A stretch of 64,000 nucleotides of DNA from Burkholderiales bacterium (GTDB lineage Bacteria; Pseudomonadota; Gammaproteobacteria; Burkholderiales; SG8-41): the NCBI GenBank assembly GCA_964203275.1, contig CAXNMF010000004.1, positions 226,748 through 290,747 of the forward strand. Direction: 5' to 3'. Shown here piece after piece: positions 7,143 through 47,884 of this stretch. Position 1 is the first letter of the stretch. Each line of letters opens with the position of its first letter. Position numbers and translations under genes: made by a program. The notes beneath the pieces are model-generated. The model did not search any database and was not told where the DNA came from. It saw only the letters and a program-made list of their open reading frames with translations.

Positions 7143-7176
7143 GACAGCCACCCTGGCCCGTGGGATTGTTGTATTT

Positions 7177-8918: not shown

Positions 8919-8962
8919 GGTTTATGAAATATATCGGCTTTCCGTAAGACCTGCAAGCCGGC

Positions 8963-9787: not shown

Positions 9788-9840
9788 GATCCAGATGTTA
9801 AACCATCCGCCGGCAATCCGTCAGACGGTTTGAATGGCCG

Positions 9841-10515
9841 TCACTGCAGGGAGGCGAGAACGGTTTCCGTCGCGTAGACCTTGTCACCGACAACCGCACG
9901 CGGGGCTGCCGTCGGCGGAAGATAAACATCGACACGCGAACCAAAGCGGATGAAACCGAAACGGTCACCACGGGCAAAGTGCTGCCCTTCTTTTGCATAG
10001 CAGAGAATACGTCGGGCAATCAGGCCTGCGACCTGAACGCAAGTCACATCATGCCCGTCAGAAGTGCGCAAACAGGTTACTGCACGCTCATTTTCGATCG
10101 ATGCCTTAGACAACTCGGCATTGACGAATTTACCCGGGAAATACAGCGTTTTGGTAACAATCCCATCGACAGGGATTCGGTTCGAATGCGCATTGAAAAC
10201 ATTCATGAACACGCTGATCTTCAGTGCATCGCGGTCCAGATAAGGATCACGCACCTTTTCCACGGAAACAATCCGGCCATCGGCCGGTGAAATCACCGCA
10301 TACGGATCTGGGGGAATGGCGCGCTGCGGATCTCGGAAAAACTGCACCATGAACAGCGCGATCAGCCAGGGAAATGCGGCCGCACCGAACCCGGAATAGG
10401 CATGAATGCCAGCAGCAACAGTCAGGGCGAGGGCGATAAAGGGCCAGCCCTCGCGGGCGATGATCGGGTGGGGATATTTTTTCATCAGCAGGCGGACGGA
10501 AACGGTCTGCGACAT
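9841..10515 (-). CDS. psd: phosphatidylserine decarboxylase family protein (short, membrane-anchored type)
   Basis: 224 aa. It ends ...[19 protein letters not shown] (the GS self-cleavage region) and lies directly downstream of pssA. Confidence 0.85.
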
Positions 10516-10558
10516 CCGTGATTACACGGCACGCCGCAAACCGTCTTCCACGCTGGCA

Positions 10559-27907: not shown

Positions 27908-27947
27908 GGGCAAAAAATACCACCAAACAGGAGCGGCCGCTCCATCC

Positions 27948-31715: not shown

Positions 31716-31836
31716 TCCACGTCAATCGCGGAATATATTGATGTCTTCGCCTGAACGGCAGACCGTCAATGCGGTTGTATTGGCAACGAATGCCGGTCAT
31801 ACCACCTGATAAACTCAAGCTGTTCAGCAAAACCAC

Positions 31837-31865
31837 AAAAAAAACCCCGGTTGCCCGGGGTTTTT
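31837..31865 (-). terminator. rho-independent terminator after pilA (bidirectional shape)
   Basis: The reverse strand reads aaccccgg-gcaa-ccggggtt followed by T8. It lies 16 nt after the pilA stop. Confidence 0.8.
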
Positions 31866-31880
31866 CAGAGCCAGTGTGTA

Positions 31881-32300
31881 TCAGGTGCCCACGCCGGTTT
31901 TTGTTTTGGTGCAACCACCGTTGGTAAACACCCAGCCAACCGAACCTGCGGCCGGGGTCGGGGTCAACGTCACGACGCAGCTGCCAACCGCAGTAGTGCC
32001 GGTTATCACGAGGGCGCCAGTGGTCGCCGTCTGTGTCACGCTGGCCAGCGTTGCAGTAGCTGAGGGGAGCGTGAGGCCAACTTCGGATTCGGTATCGCAC
32101 AGCGTCAGATCGCCGTTATTGTTTTGCATGCATTCAGCGATCCCGGTTTTATACGCTTGCACCCTGGCGAAGTTGTCCTGCCACTTGGCACGGGTGATGT
32201 AGTCCTGATACTGCGGAATCGCAATCGCCGCCAGAATACCGATGATCGCAACGACGATCATCAGTTCGATCAGCGTAAAGCCTTTTTGCAGGTTTCTCAT
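31881..32300 (-). CDS. pilA: type IVa major pilin
   Basis: [39 protein letters not shown] has a class III signal with G-1/F+1/E+5. It also has a C-terminal Cys...Cys loop, and the C-terminal residue is Thr. Confidence 0.9.
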
Positions 32301-32353
32301 ATGAAAGCTCCCAAAATTTAAAGTTAAGCAGGTCTAGCCCGCGACTCATTAAA

Positions 32354-32369
32354 AGCAAACCTCGTACCA
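32354..32369 (-). promoter_or_regulatory. sigma54 (-24/-12) promoter for pilA
   Basis: The reverse strand reads TGGTAC-GAGGT-TTGCT (consensus TGGCAC-N5-TTGCW). It lies about 55-70 nt upstream of the pilA ATG, and GGGAG Shine-Dalgarno sequence sits 7 nt before the ATG. Confidence 0.6.
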
Positions 32370-32585
32370 CCAAAAACACTCGATTCCAGTGCGAGCAAAA
32401 TTAATATGTAACTCATTGTTTATTAAACATTTTTTATCGAACGCCGTAAACCTTGATATAACCGGGCAATTTCTGTGAACTGGCTCACGATGTAAATCCA
32501 TCAAAACCAGCTACATCTGGTCCAAATAATGGTCGGTCAATCCTTTTTCATCGAGGCGTGTCAGAGTATGACAATTTACGTCACC

Positions 32586-34340
32586 TCAATGCGCACTTAA
32601 AAGCACTGAGAGGTCTTCGCGAATTCGCTTAATGACTGGATCCCAATCATCGGGAACAGTTTGCCGACGCAGTCGAACCGATGGATACCATGGCATGGAT
32701 TCCCCTTCCAGTCCGTAACGCCATTCCGGTGCATAAGGCACCATGACCCAGACCGGTCGCCCAAGCGCCCCCCCCAGATGTATCACCGAAGTACAAACAC
32801 TGATGACCAGATCCAAGGCTCCCACAAGCGCCGCAGTTTCGTCGTAATCGCCATCAATCGCTTCAGCCCAGTCCGCGATCTCAACACCGTGTTGCTGCTT
32901 TAGTCCGGTGATCTCCTTTACGCGATCACCGTACTGCAGATTGATCCAATGCACACCCGACGTCGAAAGCAGTGGCAGCAAGCACTCGAGCGACAACGTT
33001 CGCCGATTTCGATGTGTCCGTACCGTACCTCCCTTCCAAGAAATACCAATCTTTAATCCCCCGCCAAGACCGTCGAGTTTTGTACGCCAGTAGGTGACTC
33101 GTTGCGAATCCGCGCAAAGGTACCCTTGATGCGCAGGAAATTCCCGGTTTGAATTTCTAAGATACCCGGGGACGCTGGCACTGAAAATCCTGACATCGAC
33201 GTCTTCTCTTTTGAGAACATCGACTTTTATCGCATTATCAACAATGGGCACAAAAGTAGCCTGCGGAAAAGATCTGACAAACAGCTTCTCCAAACGGGGT
33301 TCGCACTCGATCACGCAGTGCTTCGCATCATTGATCAATTGCGGATAGCACGATGAATACATGATGTCGTCGCCCAACCCTTGCTCACGCAAAACATGCA
33401 GCGTGCGATCACGCAGGCTGGTTCCGTTCCAGCGCGGTTCGCAGGACCGTCTCTTACCACGCGGAAGCTTGAAGCGATATTCAAATCCGGCCCAGCCGTC
33501 ACGATATCGTCCGCGCATCAGGTTAAGCATGCCCAGATGAAATAAAGCGTCAGGGTAGTTTGGCAATACCTTCAGCGAGCGCTTGAACGCAGCAATCGCC
33601 TCATCAATCCGCCGCAATCCCAATAAAGCAGAACCCAGCGTGACAAAGACGCCTGGCTTATTGGTTCGCAATTTGATTGCCCGCTTACACGCCTCGACAG
33701 CCCCCAGGTGATCACCGGTGGAAAAACGGGCATAGCCCAGAAAAAACTGGGTTTCAAAGGTTTCGCCGATCTCCGATATCGCGCGCTCGGCAATTTGCAG
33801 GGCAAGTTCATACTGCCCCAGTTGATCCAGCTTTGATATCAGCCGCTCCAGCACGTCAAGCCGGTCAGGCGCACACTCCTGTGCCAGTGACAACTCCTCC
33901 AGCGCATCCTGGTGGCGCGAAAGTTCTTCCAGGATGTCGACCAAGCAAATGCGGAAACGGGACTCCATGGGCGCAATCGATATTGCACGCCGACAGTAAT
34001 CTTCCGCGGATTGGAGATCTCCAGCCTTGCGCAATACTTCCGCAAGATCAGCATTTGCCTCTGCTACCCCTGGATCCGCTTCCACGGCAGCGCGCAAATA
34101 TTGCTCGGCCTCCGGATACCGATCCAACTCCATCAGCGCACGACCGCAGAAATAGTTGGCTTTTACGTTGCGAGCTTCCTGCTGCAGCGCGGCGAAACAC
34201 TGCTCCATCACCGAAACATAATTCTTTCGCTGAAATGCGGTGACAACCGACTCAAGGCCCGGCCAGGACGAGTTATCACTTTTCAATTTCTGAACTTGTG
34301 GTGAACCGCGAAACAAGTTTTTCAAAAGCTTTATAAGCAT
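32586..34340 (-). CDS. TPR-repeat protein fused to a GT9/heptosyltransferase-like glycosyltransferase domain
   Basis: 584 aa. The N-terminal half has multiple TPR units (e.g. AEANADLAEVLRKAGDLQSAEDYCRRAISIAP). The C-terminal half has ...LREQGLGDDIMYSSCYPQL...IGISWKGG...DYDETAALVGALDLVISVCTSVIHLGGALGRPVWVMVP, typical of GT-B family 9-like domains. The gene is noticeably more AT-rich than its surroundings. Confidence 0.65.
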   Translation of the reverse strand: MLIKLLKNLFRGSPQVQKLKSDNSSWPGLESVVTAFQRKNYVSVMEQCFAALQQEARNVKANYFCGRALMELDRYPEAEQYLRAAVEADPGVAEANADLAEVLRKAGDLQSAEDYCRRAISIAPMESRFRICLVDILEELSRHQDALEELSLAQECAPDRLDVLERLISKLDQLGQYELALQIAERAISEIGETFETQFFLGYARFSTGDHLGAVEACKRAIKLRTNKPGVFVTLGSALLGLRRIDEAIAAFKRSLKVLPNYPDALFHLGMLNLMRGRYRDGWAGFEYRFKLPRGKRRSCEPRWNGTSLRDRTLHVLREQGLGDDIMYSSCYPQLINDAKHCVIECEPRLEKLFVRSFPQATFVPIVDNAIKVDVLKREDVDVRIFSASVPGYLRNSNREFPAHQGYLCADSQRVTYWRTKLDGLGGGLKIGISWKGGTVRTHRNRRTLSLECLLPLLSTSGVHWINLQYGDRVKEITGLKQQHGVEIADWAEAIDGDYDETAALVGALDLVISVCTSVIHLGGALGRPVWVMVPYAPEWRYGLEGESMPWYPSVRLRRQTVPDDWDPVIKRIREDLSVLLSAH

Positions 34341-34560
34341 GATCGGCTTTTAATTTGAAATCGGTGCAGTTTGCATTTTACTTTAACAGGGCAAATCAAC
34401 CGGGCCGCAATTCAACCACCTGCATGACTAAACGCCTTATTTCTCTTGCCCGGACCAGGGTCCGTAATGGCGCAAAGGCGCTTTCCCCGACCCACGGCGC
34501 ATCCATGCCGGGCCTGCGCATGATGAACTCCACGAAAGCACTAAATTTATTATGTTCGAT

Positions 34561-34580
34561 TTCGGAGCAATTCGGAGCAA
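34561..34580. repeat. perfect tandem duplication of a 10-mer (ttcggagcaa x2) in an AT-rich non-coding spacer
   Basis: Read directly at 34561-34570 and 34571-34580. Confidence 0.9.
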
Positions 34581-34799
34581 GGTTGGCGCTGATGCCGCAC
34601 TTGCCACCTGTTGCCCATTGCATCCACTGGCGTGCTCCGAAGGTCTTTCAGAATTTTCAACTTATTTAAATGCGCTCCGGAATTTCGATTTCGAGCTTCG
34701 TACATTTAAAACCCATGGGGCTACACCAGATGTAATTTGCTTGCTATTCTTACGTTATACGCAGACTGGCTCGCACATCGACTCACAGGAATGGATCGC

Positions 34800-35120
34800 A
34801 TGGGACTCTTCGGTTCGGTATCTGGAAAACAGGTTGATGAATTCGCGCATAAACTCGTTGAAGAGGTCTGCCGACTGCGCCCACCAAAAAGCAGGGCCGG
34901 ACTTGGGAATCCGGGCGCATCACTCAAAAATCTCGAGAAGAAAGTTGATGCCCTTTTTGCGACAGCTGCCTCGTTCAGAGCCGAACACAAACTGGGCATT
35001 TACAAAAAAGCCCGCCTCACCAATACGTTCCGCTGGGAAATGAAAGAGCGCGGCTATGACGAGGGCTTTATTGAGATGATTACCGAGAAACTGGTGATCG
35101 CAGTGTCCAGGAAAGACTAG
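34800..35120 (+). CDS. hypothetical protein (106 aa)
   Basis: MGLFGSVSGKQVDEFAHKLVEEVCRLRPPKS...KKARLTNTFRWEMKERGYDEGFIEMITEKLVIAVSRKD. AGGA lies 9 nt upstream of the ATG at 34800. I recognise no family. Confidence 0.45.
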   Translation: MGLFGSVSGKQVDEFAHKLVEEVCRLRPPKSRAGLGNPGASLKNLEKKVDALFATAASFRAEHKLGIYKKARLTNTFRWEMKERGYDEGFIEMITEKLVIAVSRKD

Positions 35121-35131
35121 AAAAGTATAGG

Positions 35132-36790
35132 TTACTGCGGCGGAGCCTGATATCCAGGAATGCTGTCCGGGACAACTTCATCAATCTGATCCGGACTGAG
35201 AAACTCTTTGGCATACTTTTCATAAACCTTGCCCCACATGAACACATCAAAAAGATCGGGGTCGATGTGTCCATTGAGCTTGAATTTCCCCAGAATCGTC
35301 AGTGACTCGGTCAGAGTCTTGCCTTTCTTGTAAGGCCTATCCTTGGCAGTCAGTGCCTCGAAAATGTCGGCAATACCCATGCAGCGGGCCTGTACCGACA
35401 TCTGATCCCGGGTCAGCCCCCGCGGATAACCCTTGCCGTCCATGCGTTCATGATGGCCACCGGCATATTCGGGTACATGCTTCAGGTGTTTGGGCCAAGG
35501 CAGTGACTCGAGCATCTGGATTGTCACCTCGATGTGGTGGTTGATGATCTGCCGTTCCGCTGCGGTCAGGGTACCGGCACGGATCGTCAGATTTTCAATT
35601 TCGTCGACACTGAGAAACTCCGCGGTTGTGCCGTCAGGCTTGCTCCAGCGGTAACGCGCTGAAATCGCCTTGACGCGGGCGATGTCAGCATCGCTCATCA
35701 TCTCGCCGCCGATATTGGCGCGGCGCAGAAATTCGCGGTCGCTCTCAATGTCTTTGAGCAACTCCCGAGTTGCCCCCTCGCTGGCAGCACCGGTCAGCAG
35801 CGCCAGCTGTGCATCGCGGCGAATGACTTCAAAGCGTGTATCAATCAGTTCAATACGGTCATATATGGTCTGGAGCTTGGTGGCCTTGTCGACGACATGA
35901 ACGGGGGTGGTCACCTTGCCGCAGTCGTGCAGCAAGCCGGCAATCTTGAGCTCGTAGCGGTCACGGTCGCTCATCGAAAAATCCTTGAGCGGCCCCGTCT
36001 GGCAATTATTGACCGCCTCGGCCAGCATCATCGTCAGCGTCGGCACACGTTCGCAATGGCCACCGGTATAGGGCGACTTGTCGTCAATCGCCGCATTGAT
36101 CATCTGGATGAACGACTCGAACAGGGTTTCCAAATGGTTGATCAGCAGCCGGTTGGTCAGCGCAATCGCAGCCTGCGACGCCAGGGATTCGGCGAGTTGC
36201 TGGTCTTCTTCTGAAAATGCCACGACCTTGCCTGTCGCCCGGTTCTTGGCGTTGATCAGCTGCAGGACGCCGATGATCTCGCCCTCGTGATTCTTCATCG
36301 GCACCGTCAAAAACGATGTGGACCGGTAGCCGGTTTTTTTATCGAAATTCTTGGTGCCCGAAAAATCAAAACCCGCTTCGGTATAGGCGTCGGCGACATT
36401 GACCGACTGGTCATGATGCACCGAGTAGGAGGCGACCATGCTCAACACCGGCTTTCCGTCCTTGTCGAACAGATTGACCGGGTAAAAGGGAATCTCGACG
36501 CCGCTGGTACCGCCCATTGCGATACCCAGAGAGTCATTGCGCATGATCTCGAAGCGCAATGCCTGCTCGTCGGTCATTCTATAGAGCGTGCCGCCATCGG
36601 CGTTGGTGATGTCCTTGGCGGCTACGAGGATGGCTTCCAGCAGCCGGTTGATGTCACGCTCTTTGGAAAGCGCAACACCGATCCGCAACAGTTCGCCCAA
36701 GCGGTGGGTAAGTTCGCCCTGCGCCGGGAGGGCTTGCATGCGGTTCATCAGAGTGCCCGGGGTTGGCTGATTACTTGATACAGACCGCAC
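35132..36790 (-). CDS. GAF-domain HD-GYP phosphohydrolase (putative c-di-GMP phosphodiesterase)
   Basis: Has an N-terminal GAF-like region, then HDCGKVTTP...(HD) and GGHHERMDGKGYPRGL (HHExxDGxGYP). The start is uncertain: GTG at 36790, ATG at 36748 or ATG at 36739. Confidence 0.85.
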   Translation of the reverse strand: MRSVSSNQPTPGTLMNRMQALPAQGELTHRLGELLRIGVALSKERDINRLLEAILVAAKDITNADGGTLYRMTDEQALRFEIMRNDSLGIAMGGTSGVEIPFYPVNLFDKDGKPVLSMVASYSVHHDQSVNVADAYTEAGFDFSGTKNFDKKTGYRSTSFLTVPMKNHEGEIIGVLQLINAKNRATGKVVAFSEEDQQLAESLASQAAIALTNRLLINHLETLFESFIQMINAAIDDKSPYTGGHCERVPTLTMMLAEAVNNCQTGPLKDFSMSDRDRYELKIAGLLHDCGKVTTPVHVVDKATKLQTIYDRIELIDTRFEVIRRDAQLALLTGAASEGATRELLKDIESDREFLRRANIGGEMMSDADIARVKAISARYRWSKPDGTTAEFLSVDEIENLTIRAGTLTAAERQIINHHIEVTIQMLESLPWPKHLKHVPEYAGGHHERMDGKGYPRGLTRDQMSVQARCMGIADIFEALTAKDRPYKKGKTLTESLTILGKFKLNGHIDPDLFDVFMWGKVYEKYAKEFLSPDQIDEVVPDSIPGYQAPPQ

Positions 36791-39153
36791 GCACCTGCTT
36801 CATGTCGGTGATGCCCATCAGCACCTTTTCAATGCCGTCCTGCTTCAGGGTGCGCATGCCGTGTTCCAGTGCGGTCGCGACCATTTCAGCGACACGCGCA
36901 TGCTCCTGGATGTTTTTCTTCAGCGGATCAGTGCCGACCAGCAGTTCGTGCAGGCCCACCCGGCCCTTGTAACCGCTGCCGCCGCAGACCTCGCAACCCA
37001 CCGGATCGTGGATGACCAGTTTGCCGCTGTCGCCGCCATAGTTGGCGATCCAGTCCTCCAGCAGCTTGGCTTCCGCCGCCTTGGGATCTTTTTTCCAGGT
37101 TTCCGTATTCTTCAGCTCCATCGCGTATTCCACTACCAGCGACTGGATTTCTTCCGGTGTTGCCTCGTGCGGCTTCTTGCATTTGCCGCACAGACGCTTG
37201 GCCAGACGCTGTGCCAGAATGCCCAGCAAGGCGTCGGCGAAGTTGAACGGGTCCATGCCCATGTCCAGCAGACGGATGATCGATTCCGGCGCGCTGTTCG
37301 TATGCAGGGTGGCAAACACCAAGTGACCCGTCAGTGATGCTTCAATGCCGGTACCTGCGGTTTCCTTGTCGCGCATCTCGCCAACCATGATGATGTCCGG
37401 ATCAGCGCGGAGGAAGGCTTTCATTGCCACCGCAAAAGTCATCCCGGCCTTGGGATTCATCTGCACCTGGCGCAGACCCTTCTGCGTAATTTCAACCGGG
37501 TCTTCCGCAGTCCAGATTTTTGTATCCGAGGTCGTTCAGGAATGCCCGAGCACCGAGTGCAGGGTTGTGGTTTTGCCCGAACCCGTTGGGTCCGCAAACG
37601 AAAAACAGGCCGTAAGGCTTGGACACAACCTCCTTCAGGGTTTCGAGGTTGTATTTGGTGAGCCCCAGCTTGTCGAGGGGGATGGGCTCGCCTGCAGCCA
37701 GAATCCGCATGACAATGTCCTCGACACCGCCTGCCGACGGAATAGTCGCTACCCGCAACTCAATGTCCAACGGGCCAAACTTCTTGAACTTGATCTTGCC
37801 GTCCTGCGGTTTGCGACGCTCGGAAATATCAAGATCGCACATGATTTTCAGCCGGGCCGCCAGCGCGCTGCGATAACTGGCGGGTATCTGGATGTATGGC
37901 TGCAGCGAACCGTCCTTGCGAAAACGGATTTCGGTCTTGGCCTTGCCCGGGTAGGGTTCGATATGGATATCCGATGCGCCCTGCTGATAGGCATCAATAA
38001 TCACTTTGTTGACCAGCTTGACCAGTTCGTTGTCCGCTGCGGCTGATACGACATCGTCGGCACCGCCGACCTCGCCTTCAGCATCCTCATCCAGCGTGCC
38101 CAGCAGATCGTCAATATTGCCCGAATCTTCGAGCCCGGTCGTGCCGCCGAACATCAAGTCCAGAGTGCTGGCGAATTCTTTGTTGGTGGTGACTCGAAAA
38201 ACGATTTTGCTTTTGGGGTAAACGTTGTTGACCATCCGCGAGGCTTTCACGCGCTCGGGATCGGTGGTCACGACAATGATCCCCTCCTTGACCTCTTCCA
38301 GCGGAATCCACTGATTCGTCTGGCAGAACTCGCGGTTCATGTTCCTCATCAGGTCGGGCGACTTGATGCGGTCCTGCTTGAACGGTTCGTAGGGAACACC
38401 GAAGTAGCTGCCCAGCGCATCCCCGAGGGCCGGCAACTTGACCTGAAACTCGTCGGTCAACACCACTTCAACATCAAGGTTCTTGCGCCGCGCCGAACGC
38501 TGTGCGAGTTCAAGTTCTTCGCCGGATATCACAGCGTTGGTCACCAGTGCGTCATACTTGCTGCGCACCTGCATCATCGGACCCTGGCGCTGGCGGAACG
38601 CGATCGAAAGCGTTTCAGTCAGGGAAACAACCCCCTCCTCCATCATCGCGGGGAAAGGCTGGCCCGATTTGTTGTTGATGATCTGGACAACGCCGACCAG
38701 TTCCTTGGTCTTCACTTCGAGTACCGGCGCCACCAGCATCTGCTTGGTTCGATAGCCAGTCTTGGCGTCAACCGCCTTCAGGAAATTGAGCTGGGCGCTG
38801 TAAGACTTGAGTTCGACGTCATCATAAACGTCGCGGATGTTGACCACACGCTTGTTGGTCGCGACAAAACCGGCGATCGACTGCTCGTTGATCGGCAGCT
38901 TGATGTCCTTGAAAGAATTAAGGCCGGTCTTGACCTTGGAAATGATCGAGCCTTTGTCTTCGCTGAGCAGATAAATCGTCAACCGATCCGCATTGAACAG
39001 ATTGCAGAGCTCCTGCGACAGTTCGAGGATGATTTCGTCGATGTTCTTGGTCGCATGTATCTTGTTGGTTACCGTTTGAAGCTTCTGCTGAAAACCCAGC
39101 TTCTCAGCCAGATTGTCAGCGGCGACCGGTTTGCTCTGGAGTACTGTGCTCAT
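36771..39153 (-). pseudogene. GAF-domain GspE/PilB-family secretion ATPase, interrupted at the Walker A box (1 frameshift + in-frame TGA)
   Basis: ORF 37492..39240 (ATG 39153, MSTVLQSKP) holds the GAF domain, a T2SSE_N-like domain and ...GASDIHIEPY...RRKPQDGKI...GLFFVCGP, and then derails (NGFGQNHN). The -1 frame continues PTGSGKTTTLHSVLGHS*TTSDTKIWTAEDPVEITQKGLRQVQMNPKAGMTF... into ORF 36771..37466. That ORF carries DPDIIMVGEMRD, LTGHLVFATLHTN and the CGKC..CEVC tetracysteine motif. There is an extra C near 37583-37585 and a TGA at 37536-37538. Confidence 0.8.
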
Positions 39154-39211
39154 GATGACCTCGCTGTTCCCACTGCTGCAGTAGCGGTCGGCGTCTGGCG
39201 CCGCACCGGAC

Positions 39212-39979
39212 TCAGAATTCGAATAACTGGTTTTGCTCAAGCATACGCGCCCGGCGATGCGGTATCCGGGCCGTAATCTGCTCCATGATAAGTTCCGCTT
39301 CCCGCGGTTTGAAGTGTGTCACATAAATGGCCGGATCCAGACTCAGTCTGGCAAGTTCGTCCGCGAGCAGCCCGGGGCAAAGATGCTTCGATGCGACCGC
39401 CAGATCGCGCTCGCCGTCCGATACGGCGGACTCAATGATCAGGAACTTCAAGTTATTGATTTTATTGACATAATCCCAAAGGGGCGGATTGGTCGTTGTG
39501 TCCCCGGTGAAAACGAGCGCACCTCTACCGGAGTCCAGCTGGTAACCCACTGCCGGAACCACATGGTTGGCCGGCAGCGGCGTGACCCATCGGCCATCAC
39601 CCAGCTCAACAGGCTCGCCGATGCGGACCGGCGAGTACCGCAGTATCGGCGCCTCCGCCTCCGGAATCACCCGGAAATCCGGCCAGATCTGCCAGTTGAA
39701 CAAATGGGCGCTGAGAATATCGAGGGTTTCCTGCGTCGCGTGCAGGGTAACCGGGCTGCTCCGCTGAAAACCAACGGTATCAAGCAGGAACGGGATCGAA
39801 GCCACATGATCAAGATGCGAATGCGTCAGGAATATATGGTCGATTTGCGCCAGTTGCTGCAGCGACAGGTCGCCAACCCCTGTACCGGCATCAATCAGCA
39901 CATCCTCATCCAGCAGCATCGACGTCGTTCGCAAATCGCCGCCGATACCGCCGCTGCATCCCAATATTTGCAACCGCAT
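39212..39979 (-). CDS. class II 3',5'-cyclic-nucleotide phosphodiesterase (metallo-beta-lactamase fold)
   Basis: MRLQILGCSGGIGGDLRTTSMLLDEDVLIDAGTG...IFLTHSHLDHVASIPFLLD (the HxHLDH class-II PDE signature region). The ATG at 39979 overlaps the cyclase stop (TGATG). The ORF-track start at 40162 lies inside the cyclase gene. Confidence 0.75.
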   Translation of the reverse strand: MRLQILGCSGGIGGDLRTTSMLLDEDVLIDAGTGVGDLSLQQLAQIDHIFLTHSHLDHVASIPFLLDTVGFQRSSPVTLHATQETLDILSAHLFNWQIWPDFRVIPEAEAPILRYSPVRIGEPVELGDGRWVTPLPANHVVPAVGYQLDSGRGALVFTGDTTTNPPLWDYVNKINNLKFLIIESAVSDGERDLAVASKHLCPGLLADELARLSLDPAIYVTHFKPREAELIMEQITARIPHRRARMLEQNQLFEF

Positions 39980-42213
39980 CACTTGGTATCGAACTTGTGC
40001 ACACCCTTCCAGGTAGGGCCGGGCGGATCGGCGCGGTAGGCCGCGATCCGCTCGAGAAACACCTGGTAGAGATAACGCTGCGCGATTTTCTGCAGATTGA
40101 TCAACTGCAGTTCCGCCTTGTCCCAGTCCTGGGCACGATAAAACCGCAGCGCCTGGTTCCAAAGTTTGATCTCGTCAAGCAAGGCCTGCTCAACCTCACC
40201 TTCAAGCCCCAACGGTTCATAAATGGCGATGGGTTCGTCCTTGCCCTTGACCTGCACAAGGTCAATCTCGCGCAGGACAATCCCGGAAATACGCTCTTTG
40301 GTCACCTGACCGATCAGGATGCCGGCACCATACTGCTTGGTAATGCCCTCAAGCCGTGAACCGAGGTTCACCGCATCACCCATCACCGTGTACGCTTTGC
40401 GGATCTGTGATCCCATGTCACCGACGCGCATCGTGCCCGAATTGACACCAATGCCGATGGCAAATGGCGGCCAGCTTTTGGCGTGAAATTTTTCATTCAG
40501 CACTTTTGCCTGCTTCATCATGTCCAGCGCCGCAAGCACCGCGTCCTGCGCATGGTTGGGGTTGGCGACAGGCGCCCCCCAGAACGCCATCACCGCATCG
40601 CCGATGTATTTGTCGAGCGTGCCGCCGGTGGCCTTCGCGAATGACCAGACTCATCGTCGTCAGGTAATCGTTGATGTAGAGCGAAAGATCGTCAGGCGAG
40701 AGGGTTTCCGAGATCGTGGTGAACCCGCGCACGTCCGAGAACAGCACCGACAGTTCCTCGGCGCGAGGCGCCATGTTGAACTGCTCCGGATTTCGCGCCA
40801 TCTCCTCAACCAGTTCCGGCGGCACGTACTGGCCGAAGAGCCCGGTAATCAGCCTGGTACGCGCGCTTCCACCAGGAAGCCATAAGCCATGTTGAACGTA
40901 AACAGCACCAGTATCAGTATCAGTCCTGATGCAAGCGGCAACACCAAGTTGCCGGAATGGAAAATCAGCAGATTGGCGCCAATCACACCCAGCACGCCCA
41001 CCGCCGACACCAGCATCGACTTGAACGGCGTCAGCAAGGGCAACAGCAGAGACAATGCAAGCCCGGCCACGAGCAGCAATACGAATTCAGCACCGACCAC
41101 ATAGGGCGGGCGCTGCTTGATGTTGCCGTCAAGGATGCCGCCAATCAGGTTCGCGTGGATCTCCACACCGGGGAATACCGGATCGACCGGGGTCGCCCGC
41201 AGATCCAGAAGGCCGGGGGCTGTGGTGCCGACCAGGGCAATCTTGCCCTTGAGTTCGTCAACAGGAATGCGTTCCTGAAGCACGTCAACCAGCGAGTAAT
41301 ACCGATAACTGCCCTTGCCGCCACGATATGGCACCAGCGCAGCGGCCTGGTCATCCACGGGTATTTCGAACGTGCCGGTCTTGACCCACTCCAGCCCGCT
41401 GTAATTCGCGGTACTGCCGTCGTCGCTGACTACTGCCTTCACTGGCGGGTTGCCGTGAACTGCGCGCACCATCGCCAGTGATAAGGGCTCGTAGTAGGCA
41501 TTCTGGTGTTCGACCAAAATCGGCACGCGACGGGTAATGCCGTCCGGGTCAGGCAGCGGATTGATGTGGCCGGCGCTGGCCGCCGATTTCTGCAGCCGCT
41601 CCAGATTCGCGGTATACCCGCTCCAGGTCGTGATGCCGATTTTGCGATTCCCGAAAGCACCTTCCGGCAGGACTGGAGGTGGCAACATGCCCTTGCGGCT
41701 GGCATTCGCAGGATCATCACTGAGGAATACGTGACCGAGCACAACCGCGCGACCTTTCATCTTGCGCGCAAAAATATCGTCGTATTCAAGCTGGGGTCTT
41801 ACCTGGTCAAGCACCGACTGGAACTGCGGCACGCCGCGCAGTTCGCGCTGGCCCAGGCGTTCTAATACGCGTATACCGGATGACTCGTCCCGCTCGGCGA
41901 AAACCACGTCGAAGCCGACTACGGCGATGCCATATTTGTCGAACAGCTTGTCAAGCAGCAGTGCCAGGCGGTCGCGCGGCCACGGCCAGCGTCCTTCACC
42001 GCCTTTTTCCTTCTCAAGCAGGCTTTTTTCGTCAATATCGAGAATGACAACGCGCGGATCCACCGTCCTCGGCATGGTCAGGCGCAGGCGTGTATCGTAA
42101 ACAATCGCCTCAAGTTTTTCGATCAGCGGCAGCCGGAAAAGATGCACCGCATGCGCGAGAAAAAGGCTGGTAATTACCAGACCAATCACGATGCGATTCA
42201 GATTTTTCTTCAC
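39979..42213 (-). pseudogene. CHASE2-sensor class III adenylate/guanylate cyclase, split into three frames (2 frameshifts)
   Basis: ORF 40849..42213 covers the signal/TM, the CHASE2 domain (DIDEKSL...GRWPWPRDRLA...) and 3 TM segments, ending ..GFLVEA. ORF 40493..40825 extends upstream in frame as RTRLITGLFGQYVPPELVEEM...LSVLFSDVRGFTTISE...TTMSLVI. ORF 39979..40593 extends upstream as GGTLDKYIGDAVMAFWGAP...GIGVNSGTMRVGDMGS...YTVMGDAVNLGSRLE. The shifts are at the GCGCGCG run at 40859-40866 and at about 40621-40640. Confidence 0.8.
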
Positions 42214-42404
42214 CCTGTCGTCCTATACCGATCCCGCCGTCGCGGGGCTTCAAGATACGGCGAGAAACGAGTCTCCCGCCTGCGCTTCGAACACCCGATG
42301 CGGGTTACCCGTGCCATCAGAAGTTCCGGCGGCAACCTCGCCCCGCATGCGGATACGCTGCCCGGGGCAACGGCAACACGCCGCAAACGCAAGGCGCAGT
42401 CACG

Positions 42405-43217
42405 TCACTTCTTGATGAAGAACTCCATTTTCACACCGGCAAGTTCGATCACGTCGTGATCGTGCAGCGGCTGTGCCTGGGCATCAATCATTTTTCCGTT
42501 GATGATCGGGAATTTCGCTCCCTCAACGTGAGTGATGAAGTAACCCTGCGGCCGGCGCGTAATAACCGCCACCTGCAGCCCGGGCTTCCCGAGCGTGGTC
42601 AGATTCTTGACGAGATCAAGTTCACGGCCAGCACTCGGTCCCGTAAGGATTTGCACGGCGGCCAGCAGATGCGGCTCGCCGGGCTTGGCCGCTGCGGGTG
42701 CCGTAGCGGGTGCAGCAGCGGGCGCTGGTTTGGCCGAAGGAGCGGCTGACGCCGCGGGTGCCATCGAAGACTTGGGCGTCGGCGGCGGCATCGACGGTTT
42801 GGGTGTGGGCGGCGGCATTGAAGGCTTGGCTGCAGGCGCCGGCTCTGATGCAGGCTTGGGAGCCGCCGGTTTTGCCGACGGACGAAGAATCATCGTTTTT
42901 TCAAAATCTTCGGCCGGCGCCTGCGCGGGCGCGCTGGCAACATACTTGAGCTTGTATTTGCCGATCTCGATCACATCATTGTTCTGCAGGATGTGCTTCT
43001 TGATCGGGTTGCCGTTTACGAGCGTCCCGTTGGTCGAACCCATGTCCTCAAGAAACGAGTCGTTGAGTATCGTTACGATGCAGGCATGTTCGCCGCTGAC
43101 CGCAAGATTCTCGATCTGGATCTCGTTCGACGGCTTGCGTCCGATCATGATGCGCTCCTTGTCGAGCGGCACCTCGCGGATCACCGAGTTTTCGAGAGAA
43201 AGTATCAACTTCGCCAT
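42405..43217 (-). CDS. double FHA-domain protein with Pro/Ala-rich linker
   Basis: The N-terminal FHA is IMIGRKPSNEIQIENLAVSGEHACI...GSTNGTLVNGNPI. The linker has a tandem PSMPPPTPK repeat. The C-terminal FHA-like domain is ..TLGKPGLQVAVITRRPQGYFITHVEG...PIINGKMI. Confidence 0.85.
   Translation of the reverse strand: MAKLILSLENSVIREVPLDKERIMIGRKPSNEIQIENLAVSGEHACIVTILNDSFLEDMGSTNGTLVNGNPIKKHILQNNDVIEIGKYKLKYVASAPAQAPAEDFEKTMILRPSAKPAAPKPASEPAPAAKPSMPPPTPKPSMPPPTPKSSMAPAASAAPSAKPAPAAAPATAPAAAKPGEPHLLAAVQILTGPSAGRELDLVKNLTTLGKPGLQVAVITRRPQGYFITHVEGAKFPIINGKMIDAQAQPLHDHDVIELAGVKMEFFIKK
42771..42824. repeat. imperfect 27-bp tandem repeat encoding PSMPPPTPK x2 in the FHA-protein linker
   Basis: cttgggcgtcggcggcggcatcgacgg / tttgggtgtgggcggcggcattgaagg. 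Confidence 0.8.
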
Positions 43218-43234
43218 AGTGTCATCCCCGTTGC

Positions 43235-44047
43235 TTATCTGAACCAGGACTTCAGCCTGTCCACCAAACCGTTGCGGGCCGGAAAACTCTTCAGCACGCG
43301 CACCAGAATAACCGAAACATTGTCACGACCGCCATTGTCGTTGGCCTGCTGCACCAGCTGCTCCGCCGCAAGGGGCAGATTGGCCTGCAGCGAGGACAGC
43401 GTCAATTCCATATCCTCGTCGGTCACCATGTCGTTGAGACCGTCCGAGCACAATAAATAAATATCGCCAACCTCAACCGGATAACTATGCACTTCGGCTT
43501 CAACTTCGGGATCAATGCCGACTGCGCGAGTCACCAGGTTCTTGTTCTGCGAGTGCCGCGCCTGCTCTTTGGTAATCAGTCCGCTGTCGATCTGCTCCTG
43601 CAGCAGTGAATGATCCCGGGTCACCTGCTCAAGCTTGTTCGCGCGCATGCGATAGAGCCTCGAGTCCCCGATATGGCCAACAATCATCCGATCGTCATGC
43701 CACAGCGCCACCACCAGTGTGGTGCCCATGCCGGCGTACTGCTGCTGGCTCTGCGCAGCCTGGAAAATCGCGTTATTGGCACGAACGGCATGCTCGCCCA
43801 CCAGCTTCTCTGCCGTCGCCACATCAAACTCGCCGGAGATGGAGGCCAGCGCCTTCTTCAACTCGGCGCTGATCATGGCCACGGCAATGCCGCTCGCTAC
43901 TTCCCCTGCATTGTAGCCGCCCATGCCATCGGCAAGCACGGCAAGTCCGGCCGCGGCATCCGCGGCAATGCTGTCTTCGTTATGCGAACGCACCATTCCG
44001 GAGTGCGTCGCCGTTGCAATTTCAATCGCGTTGGTCAGGTCAGCCAT
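43235..44047 (-). CDS. PP2C-family Ser/Thr phosphatase
   Basis: ATHSGMVRSHNEDS...LADGMGGYNAGEVAS...LLCSDGLNDMV...NDNGGRDNVSVILV; 270 aa. Confidence 0.9.
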   Translation of the reverse strand: MADLTNAIEIATATHSGMVRSHNEDSIAADAAAGLAVLADGMGGYNAGEVASGIAVAMISAELKKALASISGEFDVATAEKLVGEHAVRANNAIFQAAQSQQQYAGMGTTLVVALWHDDRMIVGHIGDSRLYRMRANKLEQVTRDHSLLQEQIDSGLITKEQARHSQNKNLVTRAVGIDPEVEAEVHSYPVEVGDIYLLCSDGLNDMVTDEDMELTLSSLQANLPLAAEQLVQQANDNGGRDNVSVILVRVLKSFPARNGLVDRLKSWFR

Positions 44048-44054
44048 GGCTATC

Positions 44055-46621
44055 TCAGGATACCGCGGGCGCAGGCTTGGCTGCAGTCATGGTGCCGAGG
44101 CACAGGCGTATGGCCTTTGCCATCTGCTCACCATTCTGGTAACGCTGATCCGGATCCTTGGCCAGCGATTTGTTGATCACGGCTGCAACGCAGGTCGGCA
44201 ATCCGGGATTTACCGTCCGAATGTCGGCATGCGGTTCATTGGCGATCTTGAACATCAGTTGCGCCATCGATTCACCGGTAAAAGGCAGGCTGCCAGAAAG
44301 CATTTGATAAAGCGTTACCCCGAGAGAGAACAAATCAGACCGGCCTTCAACTTTCTTGCCGGCAAGTTGCTCGGGCGACATGTAGGAGGGGGTGCCAAGC
44401 ACCATTCCGGTCTTGGTCTTGGAAGAGTCAGTGACGCGGGCGATACCGAAGTCCGTCACCTTGGGCGTGTCGCTTTCCGGCTCGTACATAATGTTTGCCG
44501 GCTTGATGTCCCGATGTACGACATTCTGCTGATGCGCGTAACCCAGGGCTTCCGCCACGCGTGCCACGATCGACAGCACCTGCGGCACCGGCAACAACGC
44601 ATCCTTCTTGGTGTATGGCACCAGGTCACGCCCCTTCAGAAACTCCATCGCAATAAACGCAAGATCGTGTTCCTCGCCGGCATCGTAAATCGTGACGATA
44701 TTCGGATGTGTCAGCCGGCCTGCGGTTTCCGCTTCGCGGAAAAAACGCTCCTTGACTTCGATCAGCTCGTCACCCTCAAACTCCTGTGAAAGCGCCATGG
44801 TTTTGATCGCGACAACCCGACCGATCTTGGGGTCCTTGCCGAGGTAAACAACACCCATCGCACCCTTGCCCAGTTCCTTTTCGACCTGATATCGACCCAG
44901 CATGGGCTTTTCCATGCCGCCGCCTTCCAGCATGACCGTTCCGCCTGGATGCCCTTGTGCGCCCCCAAGAATGACTGTCTCCGACAAAGCCTTCGCCCGT
45001 GTCAGCCGCTGCTCCAGATCACGGAATTTCGGATTGAACTCGGCCATGTAGCGAAACACTGACTCTGCCTTGTTGAACTGCCGCTTGCGCTCGAAGTCCA
45101 GCGCCAGGCTGTACAGATTCTCCATCACCGGATCACTGAGCGGACATTGCCTGAACTTGTCCCAGGCCAGATCAAGCTGCCCCTGGGCTTGATAGGCAAT
45201 ACCCAGCATGCGGCTTGATTCGGCGGATTCGGCATCGGATTTTTCCTTGCCACGCTCGGTGACCAGAAAGCGTTTTGTCGTCAATGCCGCGTAGCCGACC
45301 GCCAGCAGCGCGGTCGACGCCATCAACTGGATCCACATGAGTTGCGAAATCATCAGACCGAAATGGGTTGCGATAAGCACAATACCGATACCGAGACTCA
45401 GTATTGCGGCAACACCGGCCTTGAGCCGCGGCAGCAGGATGATCAAATAAAGCGCTATCGCAAGAAACACGCCCGCCTGAACCCAGATGCCCCAAGAGGG
45501 GGTGATGAAAAAGTGTTCGCCCAGAATGCTCGATACCGTATGCGCCAGCGTCATGACTGGCGCTGTGGCCGGTGACACCGGCGTCACCTGCGCCGTACCC
45601 AGACCCGCCGCGGTCGCACCAATCAAGACAATCTTGTCCTGATACTTTGATGCAGGAACCTTGCCGCTGATGACATCAAAAAAAGAATCCACCGGAAACG
45701 GCGGCCGGCCATCACGATCCGCATAGAAAAAGGTGTGCATGCGCAGTTCCGGATCAGTCAGCACGCTGCAATTTTCCTACCTGCAGCGCCTCGCCCCAGA
45801 TCGGCTTGATGTCGGAAATTCCGAGATTCAGGCTGCGCGCCGCAATCTGCACTGACAAGGCGGGGAACAGTGCTGGTCGTAATACCGAACCAGCAATGGC
45901 TCCGCACGAACTGCACCATCGACATCATTGTCCGCATTCAGGTGGCCTATCCCTGGAACGGGCGGCGCCCAGTTCGGCAATTGGATAAATCGGCAGGATA
46001 CCCGGTGGCGGCAAAAACTCTCCAGCTCCGGCTGACGTAACGCTGTTTGCGCTGACATAGGGCGGCAGCGGCTTGTCGGGATTGCCCTGTGGTTCGGCCA
46101 GTTGCTGGAACACCATCGGCAATACAACAGTTCCGGCCATTCTTGATGCTGCTGGCCAGCTTCCGGTCGGTATTCAGCGCCTGCTCTGCCTCGGTCAGCA
46201 GACTGCCAATGCGTGTGAGTGTGTCTGAACTCGCCGCTGGCTTGGCTGGGTCTGCCGCGGATTCCATTTCCTTTTGCAGAGCGATGAGTTTTTCGACATA
46301 GGCCAGCCCAGCGTCCCGCTGCGGTTCGAAAAAGAACGTGGTATTGGCAATGACTTTCGCTTTGGCACCACCCAGCAGATCTATCATCCGGGCGTGAACG
46401 TCACGCGACCAGGGCCAGCGACCGATATTGGCAATGCTGGCATCATCAATGGCGATGATCGCAATGCGATCAGAGGGCGTGCGCGACGCGGCCTTTACCC
46501 CTAAATCGTAGGCCTTGCGCTCCAGGCTCTGGATCAGGTCTCCTCGAGCGGCAACCAGCATCACGATGGCTACCAGAACCCCGAGAAACCAGTCGGCCTT
46601 CCAGAAACTCAGCTTTTTCAT
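44055..46621 (-). pseudogene. CHASE2-sensor / TM / TPR-like / Ser/Thr kinase, CHASE2 part broken by 4 frameshifts
   Basis: The gene reads through five frame segments. (1) 46621->about 46137: MKKLSFWKADWF...IDDASIANIGRWPWSRDVHA...LASSIKN. (2) ->about 45961: AGTVVLPMVFQQ...PIAELGAA. (3) ->about 45870: VPGIGHLNADNDVDGAVRAEPLLVRYYDQH. (4) ->about 45766: LFPALSVQIAARSLNLGISDIKPIWGEALQVGKLQR. (5) ORF 44055..45764: LTDPELRMHTFFY...3 TM...GRYQVEKELGKGAMGVVYLGKD...HRDIKPANIM...DFGIA...GTPSYMSPEQ. Confidence 0.8.
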
Positions 46622-46734
46622 CCCTAATACGCCCCGGTCCGCGTTGTTTTTATGTTTCGGCTGAATGGCTTAACGACGGAATTTCAAAGATTTTACGATA
46701 TTCCCCTCAAAAAGTTTTGTTTTTTTAAGTACTT

Positions 46735-46764
46735 AGTGCCAAAGGTCACACGATCATTGGCACT
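46735..46764. repeat. inverted repeat AGTGCCAA-N14-TTGGCACT upstream of the signalling operon
   Basis: Read directly. It also carries the direct repeat ACTTAGT. It lies 114-143 nt upstream of the CHASE2-kinase ATG (46621). Confidence 0.6.
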
Positions 46765-46944
46765 TAGTCCGACCGCCGGTCATCGACGCACCGACGAACG
46801 TTGCCCTGTGGCTGCCCAGCCTAATGTGATGCCCCGTCACTATTAGAAATTAAAAATGTCAATAAAAACAGATATTTATAATGAACAAAGAAAAGGCCAC
46901 GCCGCAGCGTGACCCCATACCCAACAAAACGATCAGTAATTGAA

Positions 46945-47884
46945 TCAGGTCCCGAGCAAGGCACCCTTCGCCAGTTCATTTGCTCGGGCAAAGTCGCCGC
47001 CGGAAAGTTTCTTGCCGTCTTCGCCACGTGCGCGCAACACCTCAATGAAACCGCCCTGCGCAGTCACTTTAAAACTGCCTTCAGTGACTTCAGCCACTTC
47101 GCCGATTTTGCCGGCCACATCGGCAAATCGGCGGAACAGATGCTTGCGGGCATCAAAAATCTGCACTCTTCTTGCCGTTGAGCGTGGTCCAGGCGCCCGG
47201 CGCCGGATTGGTGCCGCGGATCAGGTTGTAGACGAAATCGACATGGTTGGCCCATTGGATGTGCGCCTCGCCGGCCCGGCACCAGCCCTCATAGCTGGCC
47301 TTCGACTCATCCTGCACCGTCTCGCGTGTGTTTGCCGGCGTAAACCAGGTCGGCCGCTTCGAACATGGCCTTGACACCCATCGGGAACAGCTTGTTGAAA
47401 TACACCTCACCGATGGTTTCGTCGGGACCGATGTCGCAGGTTTTCTGCAAAATCACCGGACCTTCGTCGAGACCTTCGTTCGGCCGGAAAATGGTCAGGC
47501 CGGTTTTGGTATCGCCGCGAATGATCGGCCAGTTGATCGACGACGGGCCACGATAGAGCGGCAGCAGCGAAGGGTGATACTGGATCATCCCGATGCTTGG
47601 GAGATTTGCACGCAAGTATTGCGGCGCAAACTGCAGCACATAGGCCATCACGCCGATATCGACATTCAGCGATTTCAGTGCGTCGTGCGCTTCCGGCACC
47701 CGCAGCGACGGAAACTGGAACACCTTCAGGCCATGCGCCTCGGCTGCAGTACGTAAGCGGATCGGCTTTGGCTCCGGGTTTCTCCGGGCGCGCAGAACAC
47801 CCCCGCCACTTCGTCCTTGCGAGCGAGGAATGCCTCGAGCACTTCCTTGCCGAAATCCTGCTGTCCGATGATTGCGATTTTCAT
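46945..47884 (-). pseudogene. formyltransferase (Fmt/PurN/ArnA-N-like) gene broken by 4 single-base insertions
   Basis: The frames read in order: MKIAIIGQQDFGKEVLEAFLARKDEVAGVFCAP | EKPGAKADPL | RTAAEAHGLKVFQFPSLRVPEAHDALKSLNVDIGVMAYVLQFAP...IQYHPSLLPLYRGPSSINWPII..GDTKTGLTIF...DEGPVILQK... | TRETVQDESKASYEGWC...NLIRGTNPAPGAWTTLNGKK | VQIFDARK...KLSGGDFARANELAKG. The junctions are near 47787, 47754, 47322 and 47167. The 940 nt span minus 4 gives 312 codons. Confidence 0.7.

Follow-up and report, generated by a model that had tools for sequence, protein, structure and literature searches.

The stretch of DNA analysed here, referred to as the window, comprises 64,000 nucleotides from a Burkholderiales bacterium (assembly GCA_964203275.1, contig CAXNMF010000004.1, positions 226,748 to 290,747) and carries seven genes on the minus strand extending from position 46621 to 35132. 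The listing of open reading frames (ORFs) gives their order as kinase, PP2C phosphatase, forkhead-associated (FHA) protein, cyclase, phosphodiesterase (PDE), PilB-like ATPase and HD-GYP protein. The parts are all of known families; what is new is their combination, together with the exchange of a cyclic di-GMP (c-di-GMP) site for a GAF domain in the PilB-like ATPase. An earlier interpretation made from the letters alone (the sequence-only reading) had described the seven genes and their operon-like spacing, and the distances it quoted are all correct: the kinase stop (44055) and PP2C start (44047) are separated by 7 nucleotides, the PP2C stop (43235) and FHA start (43217) by 17, the FHA stop (42405) and the GTG of the cyclase gene (42213) by 191, and the PDE stop (39212) and the ATG of the ATPase gene (39153) by 58, while the cyclase TGA and PDE ATG overlap by one base at 39979. 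At the last junction, where the ATPase stop (36771) was said to overlap or abut the HD-GYP start, the ATG at 36748 lies 22 nucleotides past the stop and an alternative GTG at 36790 would overlap it. A strong terminator-like hairpin on the minus strand (46893-46916; 10 pairs followed by a T-run), located between a formyltransferase-like gene and the kinase gene, marks the upstream boundary of the unit. A scan for such hairpins found no terminator inside the seven-gene cluster, an Rfam search of 31000-47500 returned nothing above noise and so no known RNA or riboswitch in the leader or the 191-nucleotide gap, and there are no tRNAs in the 64-kb window.

Three of the seven genes, those coding for the kinase, cyclase and ATPase, lack a continuous ORF in the window, a feature that the sequence-only reading passed over. 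The reference for intact copies is a public metagenome-assembled genome (MAG) contig (L001, GCA_945862135.1) that is 99.6% identical at the DNA level to window positions 26771-48902, and the protein-level analysis of the seven genes was done on its proteins, all of which are intact, at 853, 270, 270, 744, 255, 792 and 538 residues in the order of the genes. Pfam searches match CHASE2 twice, Pkinase, PP2C, FHA, Guanylate_cyc, Lactamase_B_2/PDEase_II, GAF with MshEN and T2SSE, and GAF with HD/HD_5, and thus bear out the domains named from the letters alone, apart from a second FHA domain discussed below.

The ATPase gene (36771-39153, minus strand) encodes a GAF-MshEN-T2SSE protein of 792 residues, and a reconstruction from the window differs from the intact 792-residue protein P0001 at one position of 792 (~100% identity). 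Its best matches in the PDB are Myxococcus xanthus PilB (3JC8, E 6e-108), followed by Geobacter PilB (5TSG) and Thermus PilF (to 1e-100). PilB enzymes are characterised by a Walker A box (GPTGSGKT), a Walker B box, Asp and His boxes and a tetracysteine motif, and P0001 contains the corresponding sequences GPTGSGKTTT, DPDIIMVGEMRD, TGHLVFATLHTN and CGKC...CEVC, which do not vary across the family alignment; the tetracysteine motif had been noted in the sequence-only reading. The ATPase thus shares with PilB and PilF an MshEN-like N-terminal domain, the N2 and C-terminal ATPase domains, the Walker, Asp and His boxes, the zinc-binding tetracysteine motif and a pilin gene nearby. It differs in having an additional N-terminal GAF domain of the type that binds cyclic nucleoside monophosphates (cNMPs) and an insertion of about 30 residues between the CxxC pairs, and in lacking adjacent pilC and pilD genes and the residues of the c-di-GMP motif. 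It also scores below the NCBIfam equivalog cut-offs for PilB (TIGR02538; 484.3 bits against 675.65, in two stretches over residues 202-674), for GspE (TIGR02533; 442 bits against 630.25, with no gsp neighbours in the annotation of the relatives L001 and L002) and for TfpB. The insertion between the two CxxC pairs (window 36960-37160, minus strand, residues ~670-730) is present in a closer subgroup (P0001, P0105, P0121, P0123 and P0128) and absent from more distant family members.

The GAF domain of the ATPase (38593-39066, minus strand; residues 30-187) was assigned to the cNMP-binding subtype on two grounds, that its closest relatives are GAF domains proven to bind cNMPs and that the (S/T)G(F/Y)RT motif is kept. 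The best PDB match is the cyclic AMP (cAMP)-binding tandem GAF of Anabaena CyaB2 (1YKD, E 1.6e-28), which agrees with the cNMP-type GAF proposed previously, and the next are PDE2A GAF-B (E 7e-13), PDE6, PDE10A and PDE5. The TGYRT of the ATPase aligns with TGYRT in CyaB2 and TGFRT in PDE2A, and we take the Thr residues of this motif to be ones that contact the ligand, as in the PDE2A structure. A predicted structure of residues 1-410 has a mean confidence (pLDDT) of 59, from a shallow alignment, and its Foldseek neighbours are the GAF domains of PmGH, PDE2A, PDE5, CyaB2 and PDE10A, which weakly corroborates the assignment. We infer that the ligand of this domain is cAMP.

The MshEN domain that follows has kept its fold (PF05157, 41.3 bits against a cut-off of 23.1). 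MshEN domains that bind c-di-GMP contain two 24-residue motifs of the form RLGxx(L/V/I)(L/V/I)xxG(L/V/I)(L/V/I)xxxxLxxxLxxQ with key Arg and Gln residues (PMC12943098), and Vibrio cholerae MshE and other MshEN-domain ATPases are c-di-GMP receptors according to Wang et al. 2016 as summarised in the same article. The equivalent region here (38404-38562, minus strand; residues 198-250), located by alignment to the N-terminus of M. xanthus PilB, reads SKYDALVTNAVISGEELELAQRSA in motif 1 and DVEVVLTDEFQVKLPALGDALGSY in motif 2, and the key Arg and Gln have gone from both; RLG is replaced by SKY in the first and DVE in the second, and the terminal Gln by Ala and Tyr. This loss is common to all of the family members aligned, in which motif 1 never starts with RLG and shows instead Lys, Arg or Pro followed by Tyr, Phe or Trp, most often as (S/T)K(Y/F)D. 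We therefore reject binding of c-di-GMP by the MshEN domain, and the suggestion of the sequence-only reading that the ATPase may be gated directly by c-di-GMP through an MshE-type N-terminal domain is not supported. What the ATPase has in common with MshE-type enzymes is the MshEN fold ahead of a T2SSE ATPase and, as a concept, gating by a nucleotide messenger through an N-terminal domain; in contrast to MshE its motifs have Ser or Asp for Arg and Ala or Tyr for Gln, and sensing has apparently moved to the GAF domain and a different messenger.

Immediately downstream, the GAF-HD-GYP gene (35132-36748, minus strand) is intact and encodes 538 residues from its ATG, with matches to Pfam GAF, HD and HD_5. 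The best PDB match is PmGH (4MCW, E 1e-29), to which it aligns with the motifs LLHDCGK, HHERMDGKGYP and DRPYKK (RxxK), and V-cGAP3 (5Z7C) is second. Rxx(K/R) is the guanine-recognition motif of HD-GYP enzymes of the c-di-GMP type, with RxxQ/N found in those acting on cyclic GMP-AMP (cGAMP) (bioRxiv 10.1101/600031), and c-di-GMP is the predicted substrate; cGAMP, which was considered in view of the V-cGAP3 match, is made unlikely by the RxxK motif. The protein shares its architecture and the HD, HHExxDGxGYP and RxxK motifs with GAF-HD-GYP enzymes of the PmGH family, including Tlr0485 of Thermosynechococcus. Tlr0485 is cAMP-dependent, such that cAMP on its GAF domain turns on c-di-GMP hydrolysis, as cited in bioRxiv 10.1101/2021.11.05.467447, and cAMP also activates a GAF-GGDEF enzyme (bioRxiv 10.1101/600031). 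The protein here, whose activity and ligand are predicted, differs from these in having an insertion of about 95 residues and in being encoded right after a PilB-like ATPase, in one unit with a presumed cyclase. The insertion splits the HD-GYP domain between its HD and GYP halves (window 35584-35868, minus strand; residues 294-388), and a GAF-associated HD-GYP insertion is described in Leptospira LIC_11189 and many other bacteria (PMC12943098).

A cyclase and a PDE encoded in the same operon had been proposed, and the two genes are found in one unit. The first (39979-42213, minus strand; 744 residues when intact) codes for a CHASE2 sensor joined to a class III, IIIb-type adenylate cyclase (Pfam CHASE2 and Guanylate_cyc), with best PDB matches to the Cya2-derived 6FHT and Pseudomonas aeruginosa CyaB (3R5G, E 1.4e-30). 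Class III adenylate-type cyclases are recognised by two metal-binding Asp residues, a substrate-specifying Lys with Thr or Asp, and transition-state Asn and Arg residues, and FSDVRGFT, GTLDKYIGD and YTVMGDAVNLGSRLE of this protein align with the respective segments of 3R5G. The substrate-specifying Lys lies in GTLDKYIGD and the Thr in YTVMGDAVNLGSRLE; the product is predicted to be cAMP because this Lys occupies the position at which the guanylate-type Cya2 (2W01) has Glu, and because of the IIIb-type Thr. The cAMP circuit of P. aeruginosa CyaB and its type IV pili offers a parallel, with a closely related catalytic domain, the same Lys and Thr, and a link between cAMP and pili. However, the sensor of CyaB is MASE2 rather than CHASE2, and cAMP in P. 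aeruginosa works at the level of transcription, by way of Vfr, whereas the receiver here is fused to the ATPase itself.

The PDE gene (39212-39979, minus strand; 255 residues, intact) encodes a protein of the metallo-beta-lactamase (MBL) fold resembling class II cNMP phosphodiesterases, matched by Pfam Lactamase_B_2 and PDEase_II. The PDEase_II match (PF02112) scores 43.3 bits against a gathering threshold of 23.7 and covers only profile positions 82-141 of 340. The HxHxDH motif is present as THSHLDH, the best PDB match is yeast PDE1 (4OJV, E 1e-5), and the NCBIfam model for cyclic nucleotide-degrading phosphodiesterases (NF041851) gives 37 bits against a cut-off of 400. Assignment as a class II cNMP phosphodiesterase is moderately supported, and its substrate would follow from the context. 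Loci without the gene (L007, L023 and others) have a median cyclase-ATPase gap of ~340 nucleotides, and L007 retains a weak partial PDE match at 36% identity over 42% of the protein. Because some of the loci that lack it keep such a partial match, repeated loss of the PDE gene through decay seems more likely than its never having been acquired.

At the head of the cluster, the kinase gene (44055-46621, minus strand; 853 residues when intact) codes for a CHASE2 sensor and a Hanks-type Ser/Thr kinase; Pfam CHASE2 and Pkinase are matched on the fragments, and an intact orthologue lies at 2260-4821 of L001. It is followed by an intact gene for a PP2C Ser/Thr phosphatase (43235-44047, minus strand; 270 residues; Pfam PP2C_2), which scores 248.6 bits with the NCBIfam Stp1/IreP model NF033484, above the equivalog cut-off of 230. 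The FHA gene (42405-43217, minus strand; 270 residues) is also intact, and its product has an N-terminal FHA domain, a Pro/Ala-rich linker and a C-terminal FHA-like domain. Two FHA domains had been claimed, of which the N-terminal one is canonical (PF00498, 73 bits) but the C-terminal one is at best a degenerate FHA-like fold, with 16.8 bits to Yop-YscD_cpl (cut-off 33.2) and 68% probability with hhalign, both of which are weak. The phosphothreonine-binding residues S-T-N-G are replaced by A-K-F-P in the C-terminal domain, and the two end domains are both highly, and equally, conserved. A Thr in the acidic linker of the ATPase was considered as a target of the FHA protein and dropped, its position varying among the family sequences. 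The PpkA-PppA-Fha1 set of the P. aeruginosa type VI system likewise has a Hanks kinase, a PP2C phosphatase and an FHA protein encoded together beside a machine component that they could regulate, and differs from the present set in that the kinase here has CHASE2, there is an additional, degenerate FHA-like domain in the FHA protein, and the neighbour is a PilB-like ATPase.

Relatives of the ATPase were sought with an alignment of its family-specific N-terminal 410 residues in one genome per species (GTDB), and were found in 239 genomes. The synteny counts rest on the best 80 of these 239, in which the ATPase is 67-98% identical, and were obtained by tblastn of the L001 proteins with denominators restricted to contigs that reach far enough; all 80 are MAGs of uncultured Betaproteobacteria/Burkholderiales from lakes, groundwater and soil. 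The common order is formyltransferase-like gene, kinase, PP2C, FHA, cyclase, PDE, ATPase and HD-GYP, and the signalling genes co-occur with the ATPase in this set, PP2C being present in 52/52 assessable loci, FHA in 54/55, cyclase in 62/64, HD-GYP in 54/56, kinase in 38/44 and PDE in 53/76. Spacing is also kept, with median intergenic gaps of 15, 17, 139, -1, 63 and 22 nucleotides that include the 1-nucleotide cyclase/PDE overlap. The arrangement is far beyond chance, and the cluster looks to be a genuine signalling operon that an uncultured lineage of Betaproteobacteria has inherited vertically and conserved. Among its genes conservation is highest for the ATPase, at 71-99% identity compared to 41-97% for the kinase and cyclase. 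The cyclase and HD-GYP genes are absent jointly from L060 and L064, the only genome loci without either, and these keep PP2C-FHA-PDE-ATPase with a pilin gene directly following. In metagenomes scanned with distant members of the family as seeds, tblastn shows partial clusters at 58-73% ATPase identity (L096, L097, L100, L101, L102 and L104), including FHA-cyclase-PDE-ATPase-HD-GYP in L096, PP2C-FHA-PDE-ATPase-HD-GYP-pilin in L097 and kinase-PP2C-FHA-cyclase-PDE-ATPase-pilin in L100.

The sequence-only reading remarked that the platform, pilin and secretin genes expected beside such an ATPase are missing, and within 10 kb on either side of the cluster in the Pfam-annotated L001 and L002 there is indeed no gene for a T2SSF platform protein, a peptidase A24, a secretin, a gsp component or a second ATPase. 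Similarly, there are no platform, secretin or pilus genes among the large ORFs scanned outside 26771-48902 (1-10521 left out). A gene for a PilA-like type IV prepilin (31881-32300, minus strand; 139 residues; N_methyl/Pilin and NCBIfam prepilin models) does lie downstream. It had been regarded as a separate locus, and a sigma54-like site TGGTACGAGGTTTGCT at 32354-32369, probably its own promoter, and a strong terminator at 31839-31866 agree with that; the comparisons nonetheless show a prepilin gene on the same strand 0.5-7.7 kb downstream of the ATPase gene in 31/41 assessable genomes, and never on the opposite strand. The content of the interval varies, with the HD-GYP gene, a conserved small ORF and one to three TPR genes as its components, and in L060, L100, L101 and L102 the prepilin gene follows ~160-500 nucleotides past the ATPase stop. 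This linkage is the best available hint to the client of the ATPase.

A plausible scenario, and the best reading we can offer, is that the locus encodes a cAMP-gated ATPase, probably linked to type IV pili, within a signalling operon, although we hold this only tentatively and at somewhat less than an even chance. The two membrane CHASE2 sensors would constitute two inputs reporting an extracytoplasmic signal. One would drive the Hanks kinase, opposed by the PP2C phosphatase, with the FHA adaptor reading the phosphorylation state of putative targets; the other would drive the class IIIb adenylate cyclase, which the translationally coupled MBL-type PDE would counteract in most genomes. The resulting cAMP would be read by two cytoplasmic GAF domains of the cNMP type. 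That of the HD-GYP enzyme may gate the predicted hydrolysis of c-di-GMP and so lower its level, as in the cAMP-activated Tlr0485, and that of the PilB-like hexameric ATPase may gate the ATPase directly, the ancestral c-di-GMP site of its MshEN domain having been lost. Having no platform of its own, the ATPase could dock on the type IV pilus machine of the cell as a cAMP-gated, possibly phospho-regulated, motor or accessory motor; we infer this because a major pilin gene persists just downstream.

Several observations weigh against this interpretation. Every member of the cluster is known from sequence alone. The PDE assignment is weak, given the NF041851 score and the partial PDEase_II match, the score of the ATPase does not reach the PilB equivalog cut-off, confidence in the structure model is low, and the sequence of the GAF domain would fit a preference for either cAMP or cyclic GMP (cGMP). 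The pilA gene seemingly has a promoter and terminator of its own. The unrelated formyltransferase-like gene upstream is found in 40/40 loci, the whole neighbourhood being syntenic in this lineage, and because it is as well conserved as the signalling genes, conservation of order alone is no proof of functional coupling. Lastly, at 53% identity and below the ATPase is a lone gene with no pilin, cyclase or kinase nearby.

This last point also speaks for an alternative that we consider unlikely, though it is the most probable of the rivals, namely that the ATPase is not a pilus motor and is a stand-alone ligand-gated enzyme with some other substrate, in a filament-like or secretion process or in regulation, such that its adjacency to the pilin gene is incidental. 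Four distant members with Pfam-annotated neighbourhoods (L083-L087) have housekeeping neighbours and no adjoining signalling, pilin, platform or secretin genes, and members at this distance include those of Nitrospinota and other lineages; the lone genes therefore indicate that the basic function of the family is independent of the cluster partners. The scores below the PilB, GspE and TfpB cut-offs and the promoter-like site and terminator of pilA fit this alternative too. However, the prepilin gene stays by the ATPase gene across 58-99% identity, even after other genes of the cluster have been lost, and the best sequence matches of the ATPase core are PilB and PilF. As PilT and PilU illustrate, a pilus ATPase can be encoded at a distance from the platform gene.

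It is rather unlikely that the receivers sense a ligand other than cAMP, such as cGMP, another nucleotide or a metabolite, or that c-di-GMP controls the ATPase after all, by way of a non-canonical site or the HD-GYP partner. GAF specificity is not readable from sequence and the cGMP binders PDE2A, PDE5 and PDE6 are also good matches, while the HD-GYP enzyme is the immediate neighbour of the ATPase in 54/56 loci. On the other side are the adenylate-type Lys/Thr pair of the cyclase, the cAMP-binding CyaB2 as best GAF match, and the family-wide absence of the MshEN Arg and Gln needed for c-di-GMP binding.

Less probable still is a set of two or three independent units (kinase-PP2C-FHA, cyclase-PDE and ATPase-HD-GYP) lying side by side through lineage synteny and not acting in a single pathway. 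The FHA-cyclase gap is large, both in the median and in the window, the flanking formyltransferase-like gene is equally conserved, and the PDE, kinase, cyclase and HD-GYP genes individually drop out in some genomes. Yet the other junctions are tight and conserved with no internal terminator, both GAF receivers match the messenger of the cyclase in the cluster, the cyclase and HD-GYP genes are lost jointly, and at 58-65% identity the FHA, PDE and ATPase genes remain associated even where the surroundings differ.

The frameshifts in the window are very probably local assembly errors. The kinase gene is split into frame pieces at 45947-46621, 45828-46127 and 44055-45764, the cyclase gene at 40849-42213, 40493-40825 and 39979-40593, and the ATPase gene at 37492-39240 and 36771-37466, as seen from the ORF listing and six-frame inspection; the break in the last falls within the Walker A box, which reads GPNGFGQN in place of the expected GPTGSGKT. 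Base-by-base comparison to L001 reveals 27 short insertions and a single deletion, which occur in clusters and for the most part away from homopolymers. Those in the operon are five single-base insertions in the kinase gene (~46137, 45959, 45874, 45868 and 45767), a 1-nucleotide deletion (~40860) and a 1-nucleotide insertion (~40625) in the cyclase gene, and four inserted bases at 37533-37588 of the ATPase gene, in and after the Walker A box. Only four substitutions relative to L001 are found in the affected genes, at 46044 in the kinase gene and at three positions in 37541-37587 beside the ATPase indels; there are no differences from 45767 to 40860, and from 37532 to 26771 there are two mismatches and no indels. 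We attribute the frameshifts to assembly because five insertions in ~370 nucleotides beside a single substitution are unlike pseudogene decay, and because ATPase orthologues at 96-99% identity are nearly all full-length at 792 residues. That the frameshifts are real and the cluster is a decaying pseudogene array in the sequenced organism would account for 11 indels within three of the seven genes, but is most improbable, as the affected genes otherwise equal the intact L001 copy, insertions make up 27 of the 28 indels, and the adjacent formyltransferase-like and CoA-transferase genes, both intact in L001 and L002, are broken as well, by insertions at 47167-47789 and at 48795 respectively. Gene calls from this window need a reference-guided check, given the clustered indel errors.

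Beyond this lineage, the GAF-MshEN-T2SSE architecture is widespread and usually encoded by a lone gene. Among the 150 best matches from a scan of 1.84 billion protein cluster representatives there are ~45 separate 50%-identity clusters that align from the GAF domain onward, with lengths of 745-810 residues and identities of 35-55%; in other members of the family the GAF domain is doubled or tripled. A subgroup belongs to Nitrospinota, its sequences coming from MAGs or enrichments, and there are members in Proteobacteria too. Their database names are generic ("GspE/PulE family protein", "pilus assembly protein" or "TadA"), and literature searches, some of them with the architecture spelled out literally, turned up neither a GAF-fused PilB/GspE ATPase nor this combination of genes, in keeping with the remark in the sequence-only reading that no system of such composition was known to it. 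A bolder proposal, on balance rather doubtful, is that these proteins form a distinct, widespread class of cNMP-gated motor ATPases which exchanged the c-di-GMP site for a GAF domain binding cAMP or cGMP and serve as an alternative motor of type IV pili or related machines, and that the present lineage recruited a sensor-cyclase, a PDE, a c-di-GMP hydrolase and a Ser/Thr phospho-switch to the ATPase in one operon. Pilus dynamics would then be under direct post-translational control by a second messenger.

Second messengers are known to regulate type IV pili and type II secretion mainly in two ways, by c-di-GMP acting on MshEN domains or PilZ-type adaptors and by cAMP acting on transcription. 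If our best reading is right, cAMP would act directly on a filament motor here, with the ATPase encoded together with enzymes that make and destroy its messenger. The operon would also be a natural case of cross-talk among cAMP, c-di-GMP and Ser/Thr phosphorylation, and the family, being large, generically annotated and the subject of no paper that we found, represents an accessible and testable gap.

Among the other features of the region, a gene for a Wzy_C (O-antigen-ligase-like) membrane protein (30207-31715, minus strand; Pfam Wzy_C) lies after pilA and is kept after the pilin gene in many loci, which suggests glycosylation of the pilin in the manner of TfpO, with this protein as the candidate enzyme. 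Between the HD-GYP gene and pilA there is one gene for a TPR-repeat protein (32586-34340, minus strand; 584 residues), of which relatives have 0 to ~3 copies; in the loci examined (L002, L014, L017, L029, L037, L067 and L082) this interval varies from none of these genes to arrays of up to ~5 kb. Just past the HD-GYP gene is a small divergent ORF (34803-35120, plus strand; 106 residues, no Pfam match) that is also called in L001 and L002. It is kept at 47-83% identity in most related loci, and elsewhere a 30-38%-identical copy on the opposite strand is present further downstream.

Upstream of the cluster, the formyltransferase-like gene (47167-47834) has six insertion events (seven bases) and 36 mismatches relative to L001, the 146 intergenic nucleotides at 46745-46891 have ten insertion events (fourteen bases) and 8 mismatches, and the CoA-transferase gene is split by one insertion at 48795; the window seemingly comes from a more contiguous yet locally error-prone assembly. 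The large ORFs scanned outside 26771-48902 that have Pfam matches are of housekeeping type (valyl-tRNA synthetase, LptF/G, PepA, acetolactate-synthase-like, TctA/B and formate dehydrogenase-like) and the rest match nothing. The MAG records of L003, L015, L017, L030, L039 and L072-L076 are titled 'Bordetella parapertussis', 'uncultured Bordetella sp.' or 'uncultured Streptomycetaceae bacterium', labels that look like automatic mis-assignments in view of their lake or groundwater origin and gene content. Finally, we note that about 7 kb beyond the operon there is a gene (26555-28042, minus strand) for a Ser/Thr kinase with a C-terminal cNMP_binding domain of the CAP type, adjoining an M48 peptidase gene. 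The same arrangement is repeated in L001, L003 and L026, and it seems that more than one system in this lineage links cyclic nucleotides with Ser/Thr phosphorylation.

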